A DNA stretch of 32,000 nt from assembly GCA_016699955.1 (NCBI GenBank), contig CP064993.1:930001-962000 (forward strand), given 5' to 3'. This stretch comes from Candidatus Saccharimonadota bacterium (GTDB taxonomy: Bacteria > Patescibacteriota > Saccharimonadia > Saccharimonadales > UBA4665). A program made the translations under genes and the position numbers. The notes under the pieces were generated by a model. It was given only the letters and a program-made list of their open reading frames with translations, was not told the DNA's origin and did not search any database. Of the stretch, positions 1 through 6,550 are shown piece after piece (position 1 is the first letter of the stretch; the number at the start of each line of letters is the position of its first letter).

Positions 1-201
1 GCTTAGCCGGCATATTTTGTTATACGCACCTCGGAGTTTGAAACTGTGCACTGGTTGCATATCTTCTCGCTTGAGATAAACGTGTGCGCCGAGCTGCCTG
101 CTCAGTTTTTGGGCTTTCTCGAGCGGAGTTTTTTGGGCGACATCGTACACGCGAGATGTCAGTACCTCGCGGACGATATCGTTGATAGTTGTTGGGCTCA
201 C
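1..201 (-). CDS. ilvA: threonine ammonia-lyase (threonine dehydratase), N-terminal 67 codons; the gene continues past the left edge
   Basis: Not in the ORF track because it runs off the edge. Manual minus-strand translation from GTG 201..199 gives VSPTTINDIVREVLTSRVYDVAQKTPLEKAQKLSRQLGAHVYLKREDMQPVHSFKLRGAYNKICRLS. It contains the PLP-lysine motif SFKLRGA of Thr/Ser dehydratases. The start overlaps the ridA stop (GTGA). Confidence 0.8.
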   Translation of the reverse strand, partial: MSPTTINDIVREVLTSRVYDVAQKTPLEKAQKLSRQLGAHVYLKREDMQPVHSFKLRGAYNKICRLS

Positions 202-566
202 TTTGACTCCCGAAGGAGCGCAACGGCTTCAATTTCTACAAGTAGCGGATGGTCGGCTACGCGTGGTAACTGCGCAACGGCAACACAAGTGCGCGCGGGT
301 GCGGTTCCTGCAGCCTCAAACACAGCGGCGTATACCTCATTCATAGCGGCGTAGTGCCCCATGTCTATCAAGAAAACGGTCGTTTTTACGACACAGTCAA
401 GCCCACTTCCGGCCTCATCTAGCACGCTCGCAAGGTTTTCAAGCGCTTGTTTAACTTGGGGTGTGATGTCTGCTTCGGCCTTCCCCTTCACCGCCCCAAC
501 CTGGCCAGATGTGTACACAAAACCGTTGGCCACCCTAGCAGGACTATACGGCCCATAAGTTTTCAT
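198..566 (-). CDS. ridA: RidA/YjgF/TdcF-family enamine/imine deaminase
   Basis: 122-aa ORF with typical family length and pattern (GPYSPA.., VKTTVFL, PARTCVAVAQLP..VEIEAVA). Sits directly upstream of and overlapping ilvA, the classical functional partner. Confidence 0.9.
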   Translation of the reverse strand: MKTYGPYSPARVANGFVYTSGQVGAVKGKAEADITPQVKQALENLASVLDEAGSGLDCVVKTTVFLIDMGHYAAMNEVYAAVFEAAGTAPARTCVAVAQLPRVADHPLLVEIEAVALLRESK

Positions 567-900
567 AAGTTAATTTCTCCTGTATTTACTTTGGTTGCAT
601 GTGGTGGCTCAACAACATATCCAGTGAAGCATAGGCCAGCGTCTCTACCTATCTGTCTTCTTCTTTCTACTTCAGCAAATTGTTCCGCACGTCCACGACG
701 ACTGGCGCCACGACGGTACATAGAATCAAGGGCATTTGTAACAGAAAAAGCATATTCTTCAGTTTTTCTAGTTTGATTGGGTTTATTTTTCCATCATCCA
801 GGAAGGCTTCCCATGCTCTTTGCCGTGTTGCTGTTGCGGATTGTGCTATGCTTATTTGTTCTCTCGTACCATATTTTCCTGCGTAGTTTCTTTTAGCCAC
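563..900 (-). pseudogene. small hypothetical gene readable only in two frames (frame A 667..900, frame B 563..793); a -1 shift is needed
   Basis: Frame A: (GTG 900..898) AKRNYAGKYGTREQISIAQSATATRQRAWEAFLDDGKINPIKLEKL, then degenerates into junk. Frame B: ..KTEEYAFSVTNALDSMYRRGASRRGRAEQFAEVERRRQIGRDAGLCFTGYVVEPPHATKVNTGEINL*. The frame B stop overlaps the ridA ATG (ATGA at 563..566). A-runs at 760-793 are candidate indel sites. Confidence 0.35.
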
Positions 901-1067
901 TATACTACTACCTCGACGCAAGCTTTCATAACATCAGTAGTGATTCTTTGTCCGGTGTCTCCTTGTAAACGAATAGAATCTTGAACATCAGGACGGCCTG
1001 GATAACAGGCAGCATGTCTTTCAGGGTCTTCTAAAAAGGGAAAGCTATTCCATGTATTATTATTCAT
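900..1067 (-). CDS. hypothetical 55-aa protein (MNNNTWNSFPFLEDPERHAACYPGRPDVQDSIRLQGDTGQRITTDVMKACVEVVV)
   Basis: Below the ORF-track size cutoff; found by manual translation. ATG 1067..1065 is preceded by AGGA 8 nt upstream. It is the first ORF after the attenuator terminator. The TAG stop overlaps the GTG of the next ORF (TAGTG). No recognisable family. Confidence 0.3.
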   Translation of the reverse strand: MNNNTWNSFPFLEDPERHAACYPGRPDVQDSIRLQGDTGQRITTDVMKACVEVVV

Positions 1068-1099
1068 ATTAATTATCCTATCTATATTCTTAAATTATT

Positions 1100-1121
1100 A
1101 AAAAAGGCTTCGGTTGAAGCC
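1100..1121 (-). terminator. intrinsic terminator of the ilv-operon leader (GGCTTC-AACC-GAAGCC followed by T6)
   Basis: Minus-strand hairpin at 1121..1106 followed by TTTTTT at 1105..1100. It lies between a promoter/leader ORF and the downstream ORFs. Its 5' half plus loop (GGCTTCAACC) is perfectly complementary to GGTTGAAGCC at 1171..1162. Confidence 0.65.
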
Positions 1122-1149
1122 ATTTTGGGTTTCGGACTGTGCTGACGAG

Positions 1150-1236
1150 TTATGTTCTCGAGGCTTCAACCATGCTGAAGCACAGCCCGTTAAGGCCGAG
1201 AATAATTATTAGCTGTTGCTTCAAAGTTGATGACAT
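1150..1236 (-). CDS. candidate 28-aa attenuation leader peptide MSSTLKQQLIIILGLNGLCFSMVEASRT
   Basis: ATG at 1236..1234 lies 7 nt after the -10 box, so the transcript would be leaderless. Codons 9-13 are CTA ATA ATT ATT CTC (L-I-I-I-L). The TAA stop at 1152..1150 lies between the antiterminator strand and the terminator. Confidence 0.55.
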   Translation of the reverse strand: MSSTLKQQLIIILGLNGLCFSMVEASRT

Positions 1237-1243
1237 GTTGGTT

Positions 1244-1272
1244 ATACTAACTTTCGTTTGCTGCTTTGTCAA
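1244..1272 (-). promoter_or_regulatory. sigma70-type promoter TTGACA-17 nt-TAGTAT
   Basis: Minus strand: TTGACA (1272..1267), 17-nt spacer, TAGTAT (1249..1244). Sits immediately after the stop of the upstream ORF. Confidence 0.55.
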
Positions 1273-1549
1273 CCTTTTTTTCGGCTCAGTCCAGGCATAC
1301 ATGTAAATACTAGTGGTGGGTCGTACGAGCTAAGCCAACCTAATTCTTGCATATACTGTGGGTTTGATACTAACGGGACTTGTAGTTCCGTTTCGTTAGC
1401 AGTTATCCATGGGAGTGATGTATTCGTTACCATAGGTTGTGCGTACGCCTGTATCCCCATTGCACCTAATCCTTGTTGAAGCATAAACATCCTTTCGACA
1501 TCGCTTGCATCTGGAGTTAAGATATTTATTACATGCGAACGTCGGCCCC
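1269..1549 (-). CDS. hypothetical ORF fragment distal to the poly-G tract (..LTPDASDVERMFMLQQGLGAMGIQAYAQPMV..GLSRKKG*)
   Basis: Part of track ORF 1269..1634. The non-homopolymer part is protein-like, but there is no recognisable family. It is in a different frame from the ORF on the other side of the tract. Confidence 0.25.
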
Positions 1550-1628
1550 GGGGGGGGGGGGGGGGGGGGGGGTGGGGGGGTGGGGGGTGGGGGGGGGGGT
1601 GGGGGGGGGGGGGGGGGGGGGCGGGGGG
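1550..1628. repeat. 79-nt near-homopolymeric G tract (T at 1573, 1581, 1588, 1600; C at 1622)
   Basis: Read directly from the sequence. It produces poly-Pro and poly-Gly pseudo-ORFs on both strands. Confidence 0.95.
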
Positions 1629-1962
1629 AGGCAAAACGAACTGATGAACCGATGATCCTCGAACCCATTAACCTTTCAGCGCTAATACCCATAAATGCCC
1701 TGTATAGGGCAGGATGCCGAAATTCGACGCTGTTATTTTCATCTGGCGCTGGCGCTTTAACGTGGGGGATTTTCAGCTCTAAAAGTATTGCGGCCAGTAT
1801 CTCCAGCGCCTGTATGTCACTCGGAATAATTTCCTTTCGAGCCATGTGTACGGCTCTGCGCTGCCAAGCAATGATATTTCCGATTTTTTTAACGTCGTAT
1901 TTTAGTCGTTCAAGCTGTATGCTTTCGACGATATCGCTAAAGTTACGTTTTCCAACAGCCAA
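1629..1962 (-). CDS. hypothetical protein, N-terminal ~111 aa, interrupted by the poly-G tract
   Basis: Track ORF 1396..1962 (MAVGKRNFSDIVESIQLERLKYDVKK..AERLMGSRIIGSSVRFASP, then poly-Pro). TTG start abuts the tmk stop. No recognisable family. Confidence 0.35.
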
Positions 1963-1963
1963 G

Positions 1964-3577
1964 CTAGGTTTCCCTAGTGATTAACTGATGTAAGAAAGTT
2001 GTCCGTGTTTCAATTGCGCTAAGTATTTGTTGCTGTTGAGACGCTGTGGATGATTTGATTAGGTCACTTAGGCCAATAAATGAAACGACGGTATGCCAGC
2101 GTTGTTTGTGGCCGAGTAGGGTGGCGTACTGAGACTCGGCGGTGAAGCCACGTGCCTGGAGGATGCTTACTAGGGTGAGGCTTTGATCAAATATGGCATC
2201 GTAATCATCGGTTAGGTCGGCCGCCTCTATCTCTGGGGGCATGTCGTAGCCATAGCGAGGCGTGAGGGCTTGAAGTTGAACGTGCTGCTGCAACTCTTGT
2301 GAAAGGTCAGTCAAGGCAGAAAGGTCTGTCAACAAATCAAATTCAAAACGCGTTGATTCAAGCACTTTGCTGCTTGGGTACTTCTGCAAGTAGTCCAGAA
2401 AAAGGCGTGCTTTTACTTCGTATGGCCATTTCTCCACTGTTTCCTTCACTTCATTCATCGGCATGTCGAATGCCTCGTAAAGCATGGCAGGTAGCAAGTC
2501 GAGTTCGTTACGCGGTATTACAGAAGCTAGCCGGACGGGTGTTGTGTCGCTGCTGTATGCGTTTGGAAGGGTTGATAAGACGTCGCCTGGGAGCTGCAGT
2601 TGTTGTTTGTTTGCCAGTAACGATAGTAGCGGCTCTGGTGCGCAGGCTACTGGTAGCAAAGATTTGAGTAGTTCGAGGGAACGCGCGTAGGCGCTAGATT
2701 CGCTGTCGGTTGTTGTACCTTGTTTTTGCATGTACCCTGTGAGGGCTTTTGCCAGCTTCCGTCGAGCTGTCAGGATACGTTCTATATCATCACAGTAGTC
2801 ACACTGTATGTCGTCGGGTAGAGATGGCGGTACGAAGTAGGTTGTTTGTTGCTCACCGTGCTGCATGTCTCGCTTTGTTTTGAGTACCTGAGCAGCCGGG
2901 CTTTTAGCAAGCAGATCCGCCACTGCAACTGGTTCCCGCACTACTGCTTCGCTCAAACCAAGCAGCTGAGCAACATAGCGCCAGACATCTTGAAACGTTT
3001 CGTCGGCTCGGCCGGTTGCATAGATGACAGGCATGTTTCGCTGCTTCGCTTCCCATAAATACCCAGCGCGGATGCGTTCCAGCATTTCGGCGCTCAGATT
3101 GTCAAACCGTTCGTTCTCGCCCCTCTTCTGAACTCTTTTTTGCAAAACGTCGACGGGCGCGTCAAGCACTAAGGTCATATCTGGCCACATATCACCAACC
3201 GCGAACGCAATAATGTCGTTCAAGCGGTTATATTCAGGTATGTCACCTCGGCCGTAAAATTGCACGGCCAACGTTGTTAAGTAGCTTCGGTCGACAATGA
3301 CAATGTTACCGGCTTTTCGCGCTTCGCGAACTGCTTCAAGTGACTGGCTGCGGGCAGCGTTGTACAACAACACCTCCGTACGACTGTTCATGGGGTATTT
3401 TGGGTCTTGTGTTAAGCGGCGAATTTCAGTTGTGGTCGGATCTGCCTGGGCATCGGGTTCCTGCATCTTGCGCACGCTAAGTCCTAAACGCTGTAGCTCA
3501 TGCACAAGCATATCGGCAATTGTAGTTTTGCCAACACCCATAGCACCTTCTAAAACAATATATTTGCCATCATTCAT
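1964..3577 (-). CDS. tmk: thymidylate kinase (N-terminal ~215 aa) fused to a ~310-aa C-terminal domain of unclear function (weakly ThyX-like)
   Basis: P-loop IVLEGAMGVGKTT, then EP.., NAARSQ, VDRSYLTTLAVQ and PDMTLVLD match the Tmk layout. ATG at 3577 (MNDGKYIVLEG) is preferred over the track GTG at 3604. C-terminal domain: see findings. Confidence 0.75.
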   Translation of the reverse strand: MNDGKYIVLEGAMGVGKTTIADMLVHELQRLGLSVRKMQEPDAQADPTTTEIRRLTQDPKYPMNSRTEVLLYNAARSQSLEAVREARKAGNIVIVDRSYLTTLAVQFYGRGDIPEYNRLNDIIAFAVGDMWPDMTLVLDAPVDVLQKRVQKRGENERFDNLSAEMLERIRAGYLWEAKQRNMPVIYATGRADETFQDVWRYVAQLLGLSEAVVREPVAVADLLAKSPAAQVLKTKRDMQHGEQQTTYFVPPSLPDDIQCDYCDDIERILTARRKLAKALTGYMQKQGTTTDSESSAYARSLELLKSLLPVACAPEPLLSLLANKQQLQLPGDVLSTLPNAYSSDTTPVRLASVIPRNELDLLPAMLYEAFDMPMNEVKETVEKWPYEVKARLFLDYLQKYPSSKVLESTRFEFDLLTDLSALTDLSQELQQHVQLQALTPRYGYDMPPEIEAADLTDDYDAIFDQSLTLVSILQARGFTAESQYATLLGHKQRWHTVVSFIGLSDLIKSSTASQQQQILSAIETRTTFLHQLITRET

Positions 3578-3715
3578 AGCTCTGTAACATAATATAACTA
3601 ACACCCCTCATTTGTACACTGTCCAATCGAACACTCACACTGGCTCCCATAACAAAAGTATTGCAACCGCGACACAAATGTTATGGGGTTTTGTTGTATG
3701 CTGACGAATCGGAAA

Positions 3716-3724
3716 TGCTATAGT
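3716..3724 (+). promoter_or_regulatory. extended -10 element TGcTATAGT, 8 nt upstream of the folA ATG
   Basis: TG at 3716-3717, TATAGT at 3719-3724, ATG at 3733. No Shine-Dalgarno fits in the 8-nt gap. Confidence 0.4.
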
Positions 3725-3732
3725 GGTGTAAT

Positions 3733-4221
3733 ATGATTGCAATTGTTGTGGCGGTGGCCGAGAACGGAGTAATTGGGTCGAGGAATGACCTGCCGTGGTA
3801 CTTGCCTGCCGACCTGAAGCACTTCAAGAAAGTTACCAGTGGGCATACAGTGGTAATGGGCCGAACTACATTTGAGTCAATTGTAGCGCGCCTTGGAAAG
3901 CCTTTGCCGAACCGTAAAAACGTAGTTCTGTCGCGGGATAAATCTTTTGAGCACAAGGGAGCTTCGGTTATACACGACATTCAAGAGATTGCTACGCTTG
4001 CAGAAGACGTCTACGTTATTGGGGGTGCCCAGGTTTACGCGGCCATGCTTAGTAGTGCCGATATGCTCTACGTGACGCAGGTGCATGCCAACATTTCTGG
4101 GGATGCGCATTTCCCTGGCATAAACCCAGCACAATGGCAGGAAGTTTCGCGTGAGTCGCATGTGGCAGACGAAAGAAATCAGTATGACTACGATTTTGTG
4201 GTGTACAAGCGTTGCCGTTAG
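3733..4221 (+). CDS. folA: dihydrofolate reductase
   Basis: MIAIVVAVAENGVIGSRNDLPWYLPADLKHFKKVTSGHTVVMGRTTFESI.. and VIGGAQVY match the canonical DHFR signature and length (162 aa). Confidence 0.9.
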   Translation: MIAIVVAVAENGVIGSRNDLPWYLPADLKHFKKVTSGHTVVMGRTTFESIVARLGKPLPNRKNVVLSRDKSFEHKGASVIHDIQEIATLAEDVYVIGGAQVYAAMLSSADMLYVTQVHANISGDAHFPGINPAQWQEVSRESHVADERNQYDYDFVVYKRCR

Positions 4222-4260: not shown

Positions 4261-5247
4261 TTGATGGCAGCAATAAGTACACACAATGCGCCGGTAGCAT
4301 ACCGGCAAGAGCGTAGTCCAGACGAGCAATATAAACGGTTATTAGAGCGTATTCGCGGCACTGGAGCACCAGCGAAGTCGGGTATGGACGAAGGCTCTAC
4401 TGAGGTGCTCGGCGCTATTCTAGAATATGATCTCGAAAACGGCTTTCCGCTCATTACCGAACGTGACCTAACTCAGGTATCGACACCAGAAGCAATTGCT
4501 GCATACGTGCCTGACGTCAGTCACCGGCCACTCGCGGGCATGGTGAAACAGTCTGTCGGAGAAATACTCGGCTTTATTAACGGTGCTAGGACGCAGGAAG
4601 AGCTTGAAACATATGGCTGCAAGTTCTGGAAGCCGTGGACGTCTGACGAAGACAAGGCTAAAAAACGAGGGCTTGAACTAGGTGATTTAGGCCCGGGTTC
4701 ATATGGTGCGGCTTTTCATGACTTCCCGACTCTTGAAGAAGGCGGCTTTAACCAGTACAAAGTTATGTTAGAGCAGATAAAAGCCCGACCAGAGCTACGA
4801 ACGCACATAATTACGCCATTTATACCACAGTACATTTCTAGGGCACCAGGACGACAGCAAAAAGTGCTCGTTGTGCCGTGTCACGGTCTGCAGCATTACA
4901 ATATTGATATTGAACGAGGTGAAATGTCGCTTGTCCATTTCCAGCGCAGCGGTGACGTGCCAATTGGGGTGCCGTTTAACATGGTGCATTACGCCCTGCT
5001 GCTTATTATGGTGGCACAAGTGACGGGTTATAAACCCCGCAAACTTGTGCATATTATTTCTAACGCGCATATGTACAACCAACACACAGAAATGGTAGAA
5101 GAGCTATTAAGGCGTCCGGCCTATCCATTTCCGCTACTCAAAGTCGACCCAAGTATCAAGCGCCTTGAAGATTTTCGCACTGAACATTTTTCGATTCACG
5201 AGTATAAAGCTCACCCACCTCTTCGCATGGGGGGGACGGCGGTCTAG
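4261..5247 (+). CDS. thyA: ThyA-family thymidylate synthase, divergent
   Basis: GFPLIT, FWKPW, GDLGPGSYG, VPCH (catalytic Cys), FQRSGD, VPFN and AHMYNQH align with ThyA blocks. Sits directly downstream of folA. ATG at 4264 is preceded by GAGGGGAG. Confidence 0.8.
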   Translation: MMAAISTHNAPVAYRQERSPDEQYKRLLERIRGTGAPAKSGMDEGSTEVLGAILEYDLENGFPLITERDLTQVSTPEAIAAYVPDVSHRPLAGMVKQSVGEILGFINGARTQEELETYGCKFWKPWTSDEDKAKKRGLELGDLGPGSYGAAFHDFPTLEEGGFNQYKVMLEQIKARPELRTHIITPFIPQYISRAPGRQQKVLVVPCHGLQHYNIDIERGEMSLVHFQRSGDVPIGVPFNMVHYALLLIMVAQVTGYKPRKLVHIISNAHMYNQHTEMVEELLRRPAYPFPLLKVDPSIKRLEDFRTEHFSIHEYKAHPPLRMGGTAV

Positions 5248-5685: not shown

Positions 5686-6550
5686 TCGGATACTTTTTAA
5701 GCTTTTGTCGAGAAGTAGCAGGTGTTTTAGCAGTAATTTTTATGATTTCAACGGCGTTATTCTTTAATATCGATTGGCCGTCAATGCTGGCATATCCTTC
5801 GACATAGTAACACTGCGTGATGCCGCTGGCAGCGATAAGCTTAGCACATGTCGGGCACGGAAAGGTTGAAACATAAATTGATGTACCTGATAACTTTTTG
5901 CCCTCTGCCGCTGCTTTGCCAATCAATCGAGATTCGGCATGAATATCGATACTTGTATCGATTGCAGACCCACGGTTAGCAAGAATCCTAGGGTCGCCGT
6001 CGATAGCAGATGAAAAAGCGGTCGGCACTGAGCCGTTATGTGCTGTTGCGACAAGCTCACCATCAGCTACAATCGCAGCCCCGACTGTACGCCACCAGTT
6101 TGTGCTCTTGCTAGCCTCAGCGTAGAGCGCCGCAATGATAGAATCATTTCCAGCCACACTAAGGACTTTATCAGGGTGGACGACTTGATTTGTGTCGATT
6201 GCTTGACGATCCCACCGTAAAAATACAGGCTCAAAAGTTACTTCAGAAGCTCCAAACTCTTTTGCAAGCGCATGGGAAATATCGTCGTCGGGCATAACAA
6301 CTCCACCTGAGCGTAAGACTTCTTTTAGGGTAGGTTCGTCAATAACCTCTGCCACTCGGCCAATGCCACGAAGTATTGTGGCCACCTTTTCTGGATGGAG
6401 CGCTCGGATATCTTTCCGCAAATAGTCAAACCGCTTGCTGAGAACGTCTTTACCAAGGACACCTATGGAAGCACCTGGGTATTTAGCAAAAAAGTTGACG
6501 TAGCCTTCGTGGATTACTGGTACATAGCAGATGATATGCTGCGATGCCAT
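5678..6550 (-). CDS. dCMP/cytidine deaminase-fold protein (C-terminal CDA domain) with a ~140-aa N-terminal domain of unknown function
   Basis: Zinc-binding motifs HAESRLI and PCPTCAKLI in the C-terminal half. The N-terminal half has no motif I recognise. Confidence 0.8.
   Translation of the reverse strand: MASQHIICYVPVIHEGYVNFFAKYPGASIGVLGKDVLSKRFDYLRKDIRALHPEKVATILRGIGRVAEVIDEPTLKEVLRSGGVVMPDDDISHALAKEFGASEVTFEPVFLRWDRQAIDTNQVVHPDKVLSVAGNDSIIAALYAEASKSTNWWRTVGAAIVADGELVATAHNGSVPTAFSSAIDGDPRILANRGSAIDTSIDIHAESRLIGKAAAEGKKLSGTSIYVSTFPCPTCAKLIAASGITQCYYVEGYASIDGQSILKNNAVEIIKITAKTPATSRQKLKKYPTS

Follow-up and report, generated by a model that had tools for sequence, protein, structure and literature searches.

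Ribosome-mediated transcription attenuators, such as those of the enterobacterial ilvGMEDA, ilvBN, trp, his, leu, and thr operons, combine a short open reading frame (ORF) carrying a run of cognate codons with competing RNA pairings (1:2, 2:3, and 3:4) and an intrinsic terminator located before the first structural gene. The ilv leaders of E. coli also use Leu and Val codons. Attenuation of this kind is a textbook mechanism, and leaderless forms of it are known in Actinobacteria. According to PMC11857589 (citing Morbach et al. 2000), in the ilvBNC operon of Corynebacterium glutamicum, transcription starts 1 nt from the start codon for IlvL (MTIIRLVVVTARRLP), a leader peptide that is encoded upstream of ilvB without a ribosome-binding site, and the leader RNA forms anti-antiterminator, antiterminator, and terminator hairpins. 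Leaderless polycysteine short-ORF attenuators have been described in mycobacteria, as has attenuation by the ilvB1 leader in M. tuberculosis (bioRxiv 10.1101/834739; PMC13236596). Here, we analyzed a 32,000-nt stretch of the Candidatus Saccharimonadota contig CP064993.1 (positions 930,001 to 962,000; hereafter, the window) and describe an element at 1100..1272 on its minus strand, upstream of ridA and ilvA, which we regard as likely to be a ribosome-mediated (leader-peptide) transcription attenuator for branched-chain amino acids, with Ile in the central role.

The element shares with C. glutamicum ilvBNC a predicted leaderless leader peptide and the set of hairpins, and IlvL contains two Ile codons in addition to Val and Leu codons. 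An earlier interpretation made from the letters of the window alone (hereafter, the sequence-only reading) had called a leaderless leader peptide unusual; according to PMC11857589, such a peptide was already documented. No relationship between the two leaders was found in sequence or in Rfam. The Saccharibacteria leader is also about twice as long (26–31 codons), has its stop codon in the loop of a covarying hairpin or at the edge of that loop, and carries an extra long-range helix, P1; moreover, most of its members precede ridA–ilvA without ilvBN, and their hosts are Saccharibacteria rather than Actinobacteria. The enterobacterial leaders differ in possessing a 5′ untranslated region with a Shine–Dalgarno sequence and a larger number of regulatory codons, which lie inside region 1, whereas the element would be a leaderless mRNA with its Ile codons between region 1 (helix H0) and region 2. 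None of the Rfam models of the Thr, Leu, His, and Trp leaders matches it. The mycobacterial attenuators resemble the element, as it is interpreted here, in having a leaderless short ORF as the first cistron and amino-acid-responsive control of downstream genes, but they involve other amino acids and sequences, and the Saccharibacteria element has a hairpin with a U-tract as terminator and an explicit 10-nt antiterminator.

In the Rfam search of the whole window at gathering thresholds, only tRNA matches were obtained, and the best match to 900..1500 at E ≤ 10 was Atu_C8, with 16.4 bits against a threshold of 50 (E = 2.2). The promoter and terminator layout had also suggested a housekeeping RNA, such as signal recognition particle RNA or 6S RNA; this candidate was dropped on the basis of the Rfam result and the conserved ORF. 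The sequence-only reading had known of no leader-peptide attenuation in this kind of lineage, and the top-ranked literature matches contained no report of transcription attenuation in Saccharibacteria, Patescibacteria, or Candidate Phyla Radiation (CPR) bacteria. None of the top-ranked matches dealt with Saccharibacteria together with threonine dehydratase, acetolactate synthase, ilvA, or branched-chain amino acids. Within an already known class of regulators, the element forms a new sequence family, in a phylum for which no report was found.

Promoter, leader ORF, and conservation

The TTGACA-17-TAGTAT promoter of the element is the joint-best promoter-like (sigma-70-like) site within 1..4000, with 10 of 12 matches, and its −35 hexamer overlaps the TGA stop of an upstream Pro-rich ORF (Table 1). 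The ATG of the leader ORF (1236..1234) starts 7 nt past the −10 hexamer. The homologous loci have the arrangement TTGAC-17-TAnnnT followed by an ATG 6–8 nt past the −10 hexamer (10 nt in locus L018) and lack a Shine–Dalgarno sequence before this ATG, while the genes 3′ of the terminator do carry one. A distance of 6–10 nt indicates that the leader ORF is leaderless. The leader ORF, MSSTLKQQLIIILGLNGLCFSMVEASRT, forms the 3′ part of a 50-amino-acid ORF (1150..1302); the version starting at ATG 1302 was rejected, as its upstream extension overlaps the promoter and is unconserved. The promoter, the ATG 7 nt later, the 28-codon ORF, its Ile run, the 10-nt complement, the terminator, and the CTGTGCT/AGCACAG pairing had all been pointed out by the sequence-only reading, and each was found to be present exactly where it had been placed on the minus strand. 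No second copy of the element was found elsewhere in the window.

Relatives of the fused thymidylate kinase encoded in the window occur in Saccharibacteria/Saccharimonadales genomes with 61–67% amino-acid identity, and in their loci the element is 85–90% identical at the nucleotide level. By way of IlvA homologues and contig look-ups, 13 further distinct versions were collected from other Saccharibacteria contigs, giving 14 sequences including the window; locus L014 and several short contigs stop short of the leader. Scanning metagenomes with a 20-nt core pattern returned only two near-identical matches and added one variant, and the 113-amino-acid downstream protein had only two homologues. 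The 13 further contigs have kept the small ORF with its Ile pair as well as the antiterminator complement and the terminator, and none of the sequence-based conditions that the sequence-only reading had named as able to refute its proposal was observed. On this sequence comparison, the promoter, ORF, helices, terminator, and gene neighborhood are conserved. The element is 72–97% identical across the 14 sequences and their ridA genes 51–75%, with a mean identity of 82% for the leader core versus 63% for ridA. At the third codon positions of the nine leader codons GGG..GCC, identity over all pairs was 96%, compared to 38% in ridA, which is near saturation. This difference indicates that RNA structure is under selection.

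The leader peptides comprise 26–31 residues in all 14 sequences, with two or three Ile, one to four Val, and three to five Leu each; as in known attenuators, codons for amino acids of the regulated pathway are thus clustered in the leader ORF. An adjacent Ile–Ile pair is present in 12 of the 14 (ATT ATT, or ATT ATC in L018), and the Ile codons of L010 and L021 are dispersed. The Leu residues at codons 13, 15, and 18 show little or no variation across the homologues. The leader of L021, which is located upstream of ilvBN, encodes MRFSEIVDIAVIVLGLRGLCFTTVEATR and is richer in Ile and Val (IVDIAVIVL). In L010 (2985..3128), the CTCGGCCTC-ATT segment is duplicated (12 nt, in frame), so that the leader has 31 codons and contains the P0 5′ strand twice. 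The distance from the ATG to GGTTGAAGCC is 59, 62, 65, 68, or 74 nt, with differences that are always multiples of three, while the non-coding spacers shift in 1-nt steps (stop codon to strand D, 7–10 nt; strand D to region 3, 9–13 nt). The stop codon lies 10 nt past strand C in all homologues and inside the P3 loop, or at its 3′ edge, in all 14 sequences.

The genes behind the element are also those expected of an attenuator, in that they belong to the pathway of the amino acid that would be sensed. In every locus the element is upstream of ridA and a biosynthetic-type ilvA; full-length IlvA orthologues contain PF00291 and PF00585 (the PALP domain and Thr_dehydrat_C). The flanking upstream genes and the one to three intervening small ORFs vary between loci. 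The link to ilv genes is stronger in relatives than in the window itself. In L021, the element directly precedes ilvB–ilvN–ridA–ilvA, and its strands B, C, and D and its region 3 are recognizable; IlvB and IlvN are also encoded in L022, from a more distant member of the Saccharimonadales. In L022, a leaderless Ile- and Thr-rich leader of different sequence (1480..1630) precedes ilvB–ilvN–ridA–ilvA. It consists of a TTGCAA-17-TATAGT promoter, an ATG 8 nt later, the peptide MSASQNIILSIITTATPRR, and a terminator. The last three codons contain its antiterminator strand, which would be masked only once a ribosome reaches the end of the ORF. No Rfam match to the leader element was obtained in the L021 and L022 loci.

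Competing RNA helices

Table 1. Features of the element and of the downstream genes in the window
Feature	Position	Strand	Remarks
−35 hexamer TTGACA	1267..1272	−	TTGAC invariant in 12 of 13 homologues, same spacing
−10 hexamer TAGTAT	1244..1249	−	17 nt past −35; TAnnnT kept in homologues
Leaderless leader ORF	1150..1236	−	28 codons and TAA (1152..1150); kept in 14 of 14 sequences
H0 5′ strand UCAACUUUGAAGC, codons 3–7	1218..1230	−	pairs with 1181..1166 (GCUUCA...CAUGGUUGA) inside the ORF
Ile codons ATA ATT ATT (codons 10–12)	1201..1209	−	between Leu codons CTA and CTC
P0 mini-hairpin	1183..1198	−	CGGCC 1198..1194 with GGCUG 1187..1183; variable 6-nt loop; competes with P1
Strand B GGGCUGUGCUUCAGC	1174..1188	−	5′ arm of P1 (1188..1179) and of P2 (1181..1174)
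Strand C GGUUGAAGCC (DNA GGTTGAAGCC)	1162..1171	−	antiterminator 5′ strand; alternative partners B (P2) or H0
P3 hairpin	1146..1160	−	CGAG 1160..1157 with CUCG 1149..1146; loop AACAUAA holds the stop codon
Strand D AGCACAGUCC	1134..1143	−	3′ arm of long-range helix P1; 98.5% of cells paired
A/C-rich linker	1122..1133	−	variable, 9–13 nt in homologues
Intrinsic terminator GGCUUC-AACC-GAAGCC-U6	1100..1121	−	first 10 nt (1121..1112) are region 3, the antiterminator 3′ strand
55-amino-acid ORF	900..1067	−	first gene past the terminator; AGGA Shine–Dalgarno sequence; no known family
Second small gene	563..921	−	homologue of the 113-amino-acid ORF of L001, split over two frames
ridA	198..566	−	Ribonuc_L-PSP family
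ilvA, 5′ end	1..201	−	biosynthetic-type threonine ammonia-lyase; runs past the window edge

The antiterminator and the terminator are mutually exclusive, as in known attenuators, because both use region 3. In the DNA, the 10 nt of GGTTGAAGCC (1171..1162) and GGCTTCAACC (1121..1112) are perfectly complementary, so that pairing of GGUUGAAGCC with GGCUUCAACC in the RNA excludes the terminator hairpin. When the 137-nt leader was dinucleotide-shuffled 2000 times, 0.85% of the shuffles contained a perfect complement of at least 10 nt. All 14 sequences have an identical strand C, and 98.5% of the cells of the 13-sequence alignment keep it paired with region 3. In every homologue, a terminator hairpin with a U-run of five or six separates the leader ORF from the first structural gene, 25–45 nt before the next start codon. 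Because GGCUUC also serves the terminator stem, invariance alone argues only weakly for an antiterminator. In L016 and L021, the terminator stem has been rebuilt (CCUCGG/CCGAGG and CCACUCGG/CCGAGUGG) and CUUCAA has become the loop; region 3 is unchanged in both despite this rebuilding. A loop of a terminator would not by itself call for conservation; the retention of GGCUUCAACC in these two loci, where CUUCAA is a mere terminator loop, is explained by its pairing with the UUGAAG of strand C.

P1 is a 10-bp helix formed by 1188..1179 and 1143..1134, with the core CTGTGCT (1185..1179) and AGCACAG (1143..1137). Strand B is invariant save in L001 and L008, where a U to C change is matched by a compensatory change in strand D; this double change from U-A to C-G is found although it turns the peptide Cys into Arg. 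G-U to G-C changes were also seen in P1. The P3 stem covaries (CGAG/CUCG, CGAGA/UCUCG, CGAGC/GCUCG, CGAAC/GUUCG, GCGC/GCGC, and GUC/GAC), with 1-nt insertions and deletions confined to its loop, and its pairing stays while the C-terminal residues of the peptide drift (SRT, TRQ, PSS, SSR, SNR, and TR). For H0, the consensus of the 5′ strand in homologues is UCAACYAUG(C)GAAGC, and the duplex energy was −15.6 to −22.4 kcal/mol (z = −4 to −6) in 12 of the 13 sequences tested; the helix is absent in L021. In the predicted folds, H0 is the anti-antiterminator, the counterpart of trp region 1:2, and sequesters strand C in untranslated RNA. P0 appears in the minimum-energy folds of most homologues and is paired in 95% of cells; its changes are one-sided only (G-U to A-U), and the comparison speaks weakly for it. 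H0, P0, and P3 are additional to the parts listed by the sequence-only reading.

The 137-nt leader with its terminator had a folding energy of −35.6 kcal/mol (z = −2.7) and was more stable than 200 of 200 shuffles. RNAalifold independently recovered P1, P3, and the terminator. Column covariation statistics were weak, the helices being invariant and P3 and the 5′ region being misaligned by MAFFT; P3 and H0 were therefore judged sequence by sequence.

Ribosome position and rival explanations

The attenuator would control read-through from the promoter at 1272..1244 into the operon, which in the window consists of two small ORFs, ridA, and ilvA. Transcription would start at the ATG or within 1–2 nt of it, and the 28-codon ORF would be translated as a leaderless mRNA. 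In the absence of translation, the H0 strand would pair with GCUUCA...CAUGGUUGA and P0 would form, leaving strand C sequestered and the terminator free to fold. A ribosome that reaches the stop codon in the P3 loop would cover the 3′ half of C together with strand D, and the terminator would form again. A ribosome delayed at hungry Ile, Val, or Leu codons (codons 9–18) would instead break H0 and P0 while leaving C uncovered; C would then pair with GGCUUCAACC and block the terminator, and RNA polymerase would read through. P1 (B:D) would draw strand B off C, such that P1 and the antiterminator would coexist as an H-type pseudoknot. We infer from these sequence features that the leader ORF is translated, that the ribosome stalls, and that the structural switches follow in order; where exactly it stalls and what P1 does are likewise inferred. 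Transcripts of the upstream gene may end at the terminator too, which is compatible with attenuation.

To follow the ribosome along the leader, the RNA was masked up to 10–15 nt past the first A-site nucleotide, codon by codon, and then folded (nested, pseudoknot-free). The simulated transcript was ended after region 3, as equilibrium folds with the full terminator favor the terminator at most ribosome positions, and at all of them in L020. The antiterminator was highly probable only with the A site on L-G-L-x-G-L-C (window codons 13–19) in 13 of 13 sequences tested, and its probability was approximately 0 from codon 20 to the stop, again in 13 of 13. A ribosome that has completed the ORF would thus mask strand C, as in known attenuators and as the sequence-only reading had expected of a ribosome at the stop codon. 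When an E. coli trpL sequence was run through the same script, its Trp codons fell inside the antiterminator window, which suggests that the codon offset seen in the element is probably not a flaw of the method.

Several points weigh against the proposed attenuator. With the A site on the Ile codons, the antiterminator probability was approximately 0 and P1, P2, and P3 were intact; the simulated window opens one or two codons past the Ile run, because P1 and P2 still hold strand C while the ribosome is on the Ile codons. The sequence-only reading had expected an Ile-stalled ribosome to leave strand C free. This part did not hold in the nested simulations, in which P1 and P2 sequester C and the window falls on codons 13–19, but would hold if P1 and the antiterminator form a pseudoknot. 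Folding did bear out the mutually exclusive pairings that it had proposed, but at minimum energy the naked RNA adopts a three-way junction (P1, P2, and P3) with the terminator and without the antiterminator. The antiterminator and P2 are invariant rather than covarying, and it is invariance and the rebuilt terminators that argue for them. Only two or three Ile codons are present per leader, and every homologue comes from one fairly narrow clade. Finally, the operon in the clade of the window is without ilvBN and runs on into tdh–kbl, that is, into threonine breakdown, where the physiological logic of Ile sensing is less evident.

According to these models, Ile-specific sensing needs either a pseudoknot of P1 and the antiterminator or a longer reach of the ribosome; alternatively, the effective hungry codons may be the whole stretch from the Ile run to the invariant Leu codons. 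The pseudoknot that P1 and the antiterminator may form together would be of the H type and have loops of 7, 18, and 12 nt, a structure beyond what nested folding can represent. A rough estimate from helix stacking energies plus a penalty of 9.6 kcal/mol gave about −32 to −42 kcal/mol for the pseudoknot (P1, antiterminator, and P3) and −21 to −28 kcal/mol for the junction, favoring the pseudoknot by 8–14 kcal/mol. Under this scheme, strand D gains a purpose, namely, drawing strand B off C. We tentatively offer, as a possibility that is open to considerable doubt, the full form of this proposal: an Ile stall breaks H0 and P0, P1 strips B from C, and the antiterminator forms across P1, in a regulator that outlived the loss of ilvBN and now controls, in a host-dependent CPR bacterium, a threonine-degrading operon (ridA–ilvA–tdh–kbl) and the fast-evolving small ORFs. 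If true, it would represent a multi-state design unlike the nested 1:2, 2:3, and 3:4 scheme and the first case known to us in Patescibacteria of regulation by coupled transcription and leaderless translation.

The rival that survives best keeps the attenuator and assigns the decisive role to the invariant Leu, and possibly Gly, codons 13–18 (CUC GGC CUU nnn GGG CUG), so that the element would report leucine supply or general translation speed, with Ile secondary. The simulations place the antiterminator window on L-G-L-x-G-L-C in 13 of 13 sequences and give approximately 0 on the Ile codons, the same script places the Trp codons of trpL inside its window, the Leu codons are (near-)invariant, and the use of Leu and Val codons in the E. 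coli ilv leaders also counts in its favor. However, the Leu and Gly codons sit in strands A and B, which are fixed by pairing, and their invariance need not mean a codon function; the adjacent Ile–Ile pair of 12 of the 14 sequences is accounted for by none of the helices found; and IlvA, the enzyme encoded downstream, acts specifically in the Ile branch. If the P1–antiterminator pseudoknot can form, Ile stalls would also yield read-through. We consider the Leu codons unlikely to be the decisive ones.

A ligand- or protein-binding structured leader was considered next, in which the P1–P2–P3 junction would be the sensor, GGUUGAAGCC/GGCUUCAACC the expression platform, and the ORF incidental. The junction with the terminator is the minimum-energy fold of the window, P1 and P3 were recovered by RNAalifold, nucleotide conservation is very high, and the simplest scheme of attenuation leaves strand D without an evident role. 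A riboswitch would be expected to show conserved loops and junctions, covarying helices, and no need of an ORF; what was found is the reverse of a typical aptamer, since the loops and junctions (P3 loop, J3/1, and P0 loop) vary while the helices are invariant. In addition, the distance from the −10 hexamer to the ATG is fixed in all homologues, the insertions and deletions in the ORF are all in frame while those of the neighboring spacers vary by 1 nt, and the stop codon is always in the P3 loop or at its edge. The lack of an Rfam match and a peptide composition that tracks ilv gene content (L021) also argue against such a sensor, which we judge highly improbable.

Highly improbable as well, and slightly more so, is a small gene in its own right, for either an RNA of approximately 137 nt that acts in trans or a hydrophobic small protein (LIIILGLNGLCFSMV could cross a membrane). 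The hairpin would then be its own terminator and perhaps also that of the upstream gene. The strong promoter and terminator, the hydrophobic peptide core, and promoter-like sites of the next gene (TTAATA-18-GATAAT, 1101..1072) would fit, but the nucleotides rather than the peptide are under selection (third codon positions are 96% identical, where a type I toxin-like protein would show selection on amino acids and free synonymous sites), the change of Cys to Arg is accepted where it restores the RNA pairing, the C-terminal residues drift but P3 stays paired, the element always lies immediately upstream of the ridA–ilvA or ilvBN operon whatever its upstream neighbors, and a plain terminator leaves the conservation of the 10-nt complement in L016 and L021 unexplained.

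Overall, the general mechanism of attenuation is well supported, and the interpretation given by the sequence-only reading is supported with caveats regarding the geometry of the stall, the specificity for Ile, and the physiological role. The general view of Saccharibacteria and other CPR bacteria is that they are poor in regulatory systems and amino-acid metabolism. If the attenuator reading is true, Saccharibacteria would retain at least one classical sensor of amino-acid supply working via tRNA charging, their ribosomes would be able to initiate on leaderless mRNAs, and their transcription and translation would be coupled tightly enough for attenuation. The regulator would have been retained while its operon changed from ilvBN–ridA–ilvA to small ORFs–ridA–ilvA–tdh–kbl. 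Such a finding would extend known biology and overturn nothing, given that the mechanism and its leaderless forms are already known, and it would provide genome annotation with an unannotated, readily recognizable RNA family.

Downstream operon and neighboring genes

The sequence-only reading had placed a ridA–ilvA operon behind the terminator. Both genes are present there, but ridA is not directly next to the terminator, from which it is separated by approximately 500 nt of small ORFs (1067..563). The first ORFs past the terminator (900..1067 in the window, 7796..7951 in L001, 3073..3282 in L018, and the corresponding ORF of L006) belong to a fast-evolving family of 50–70 amino acids with a motif like Y-x-G-x-P-[DE]-V-Q-x-S-I and without a Pfam family. 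They sit where L021 and L022 carry ilvBN. That the small ORFs before ridA are decayed ilvB and ilvN was rejected, as tblastn with IlvB and IlvN of L021 and L022 gave a best E value of 0.85. In the clade of the window, the operon is without ilvBN; in several relatives (e.g., L001 and L010), it runs on into genes for a tdh-like Zn-dependent alcohol dehydrogenase and a kbl-like class I/II aminotransferase. In the second small gene, residues 1–54 of the 113-amino-acid homologue are encoded at 900..745 and residues 49–105 at 763..587, where a different frame is used; an A-run at approximately 760 lies close to the break. The split reflects either a pseudogene or an assembly error.

Meanwhile, the only Rfam cis-regulatory match in the L021 and L022 loci was the L10 leader (RF00557), at 6154..6295 and 227..358, respectively, and rplJ–rplL adjoin the ilv operon in several Saccharibacteria. 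The Pro-rich ORF upstream of the element in the window (1269..1962, minus strand) lies in two frames (1396..1962 and 1269..1634) and is split at a C/G-rich poly-Pro tract at approximately 1530–1620, which could be due to a frameshift, a phase-variable tract, or a sequencing error. L001, L003, and L004 lack this gene, and in them the thymidylate kinase fusion gene is directly followed by the leader. In the window, the fusion gene (1964..3604, minus strand) encodes a protein of 546 amino acids with an N-terminal thymidylate kinase domain and a C-terminal part of approximately 330 amino acids without a Pfam match. Its orthologue in L024 comprises 777 amino acids and contains a Thy1/ThyX domain. 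The fusion gene adjoins a divergent gene for DHFR (3733..4221), which is followed by that for ThyA (4261..5247).

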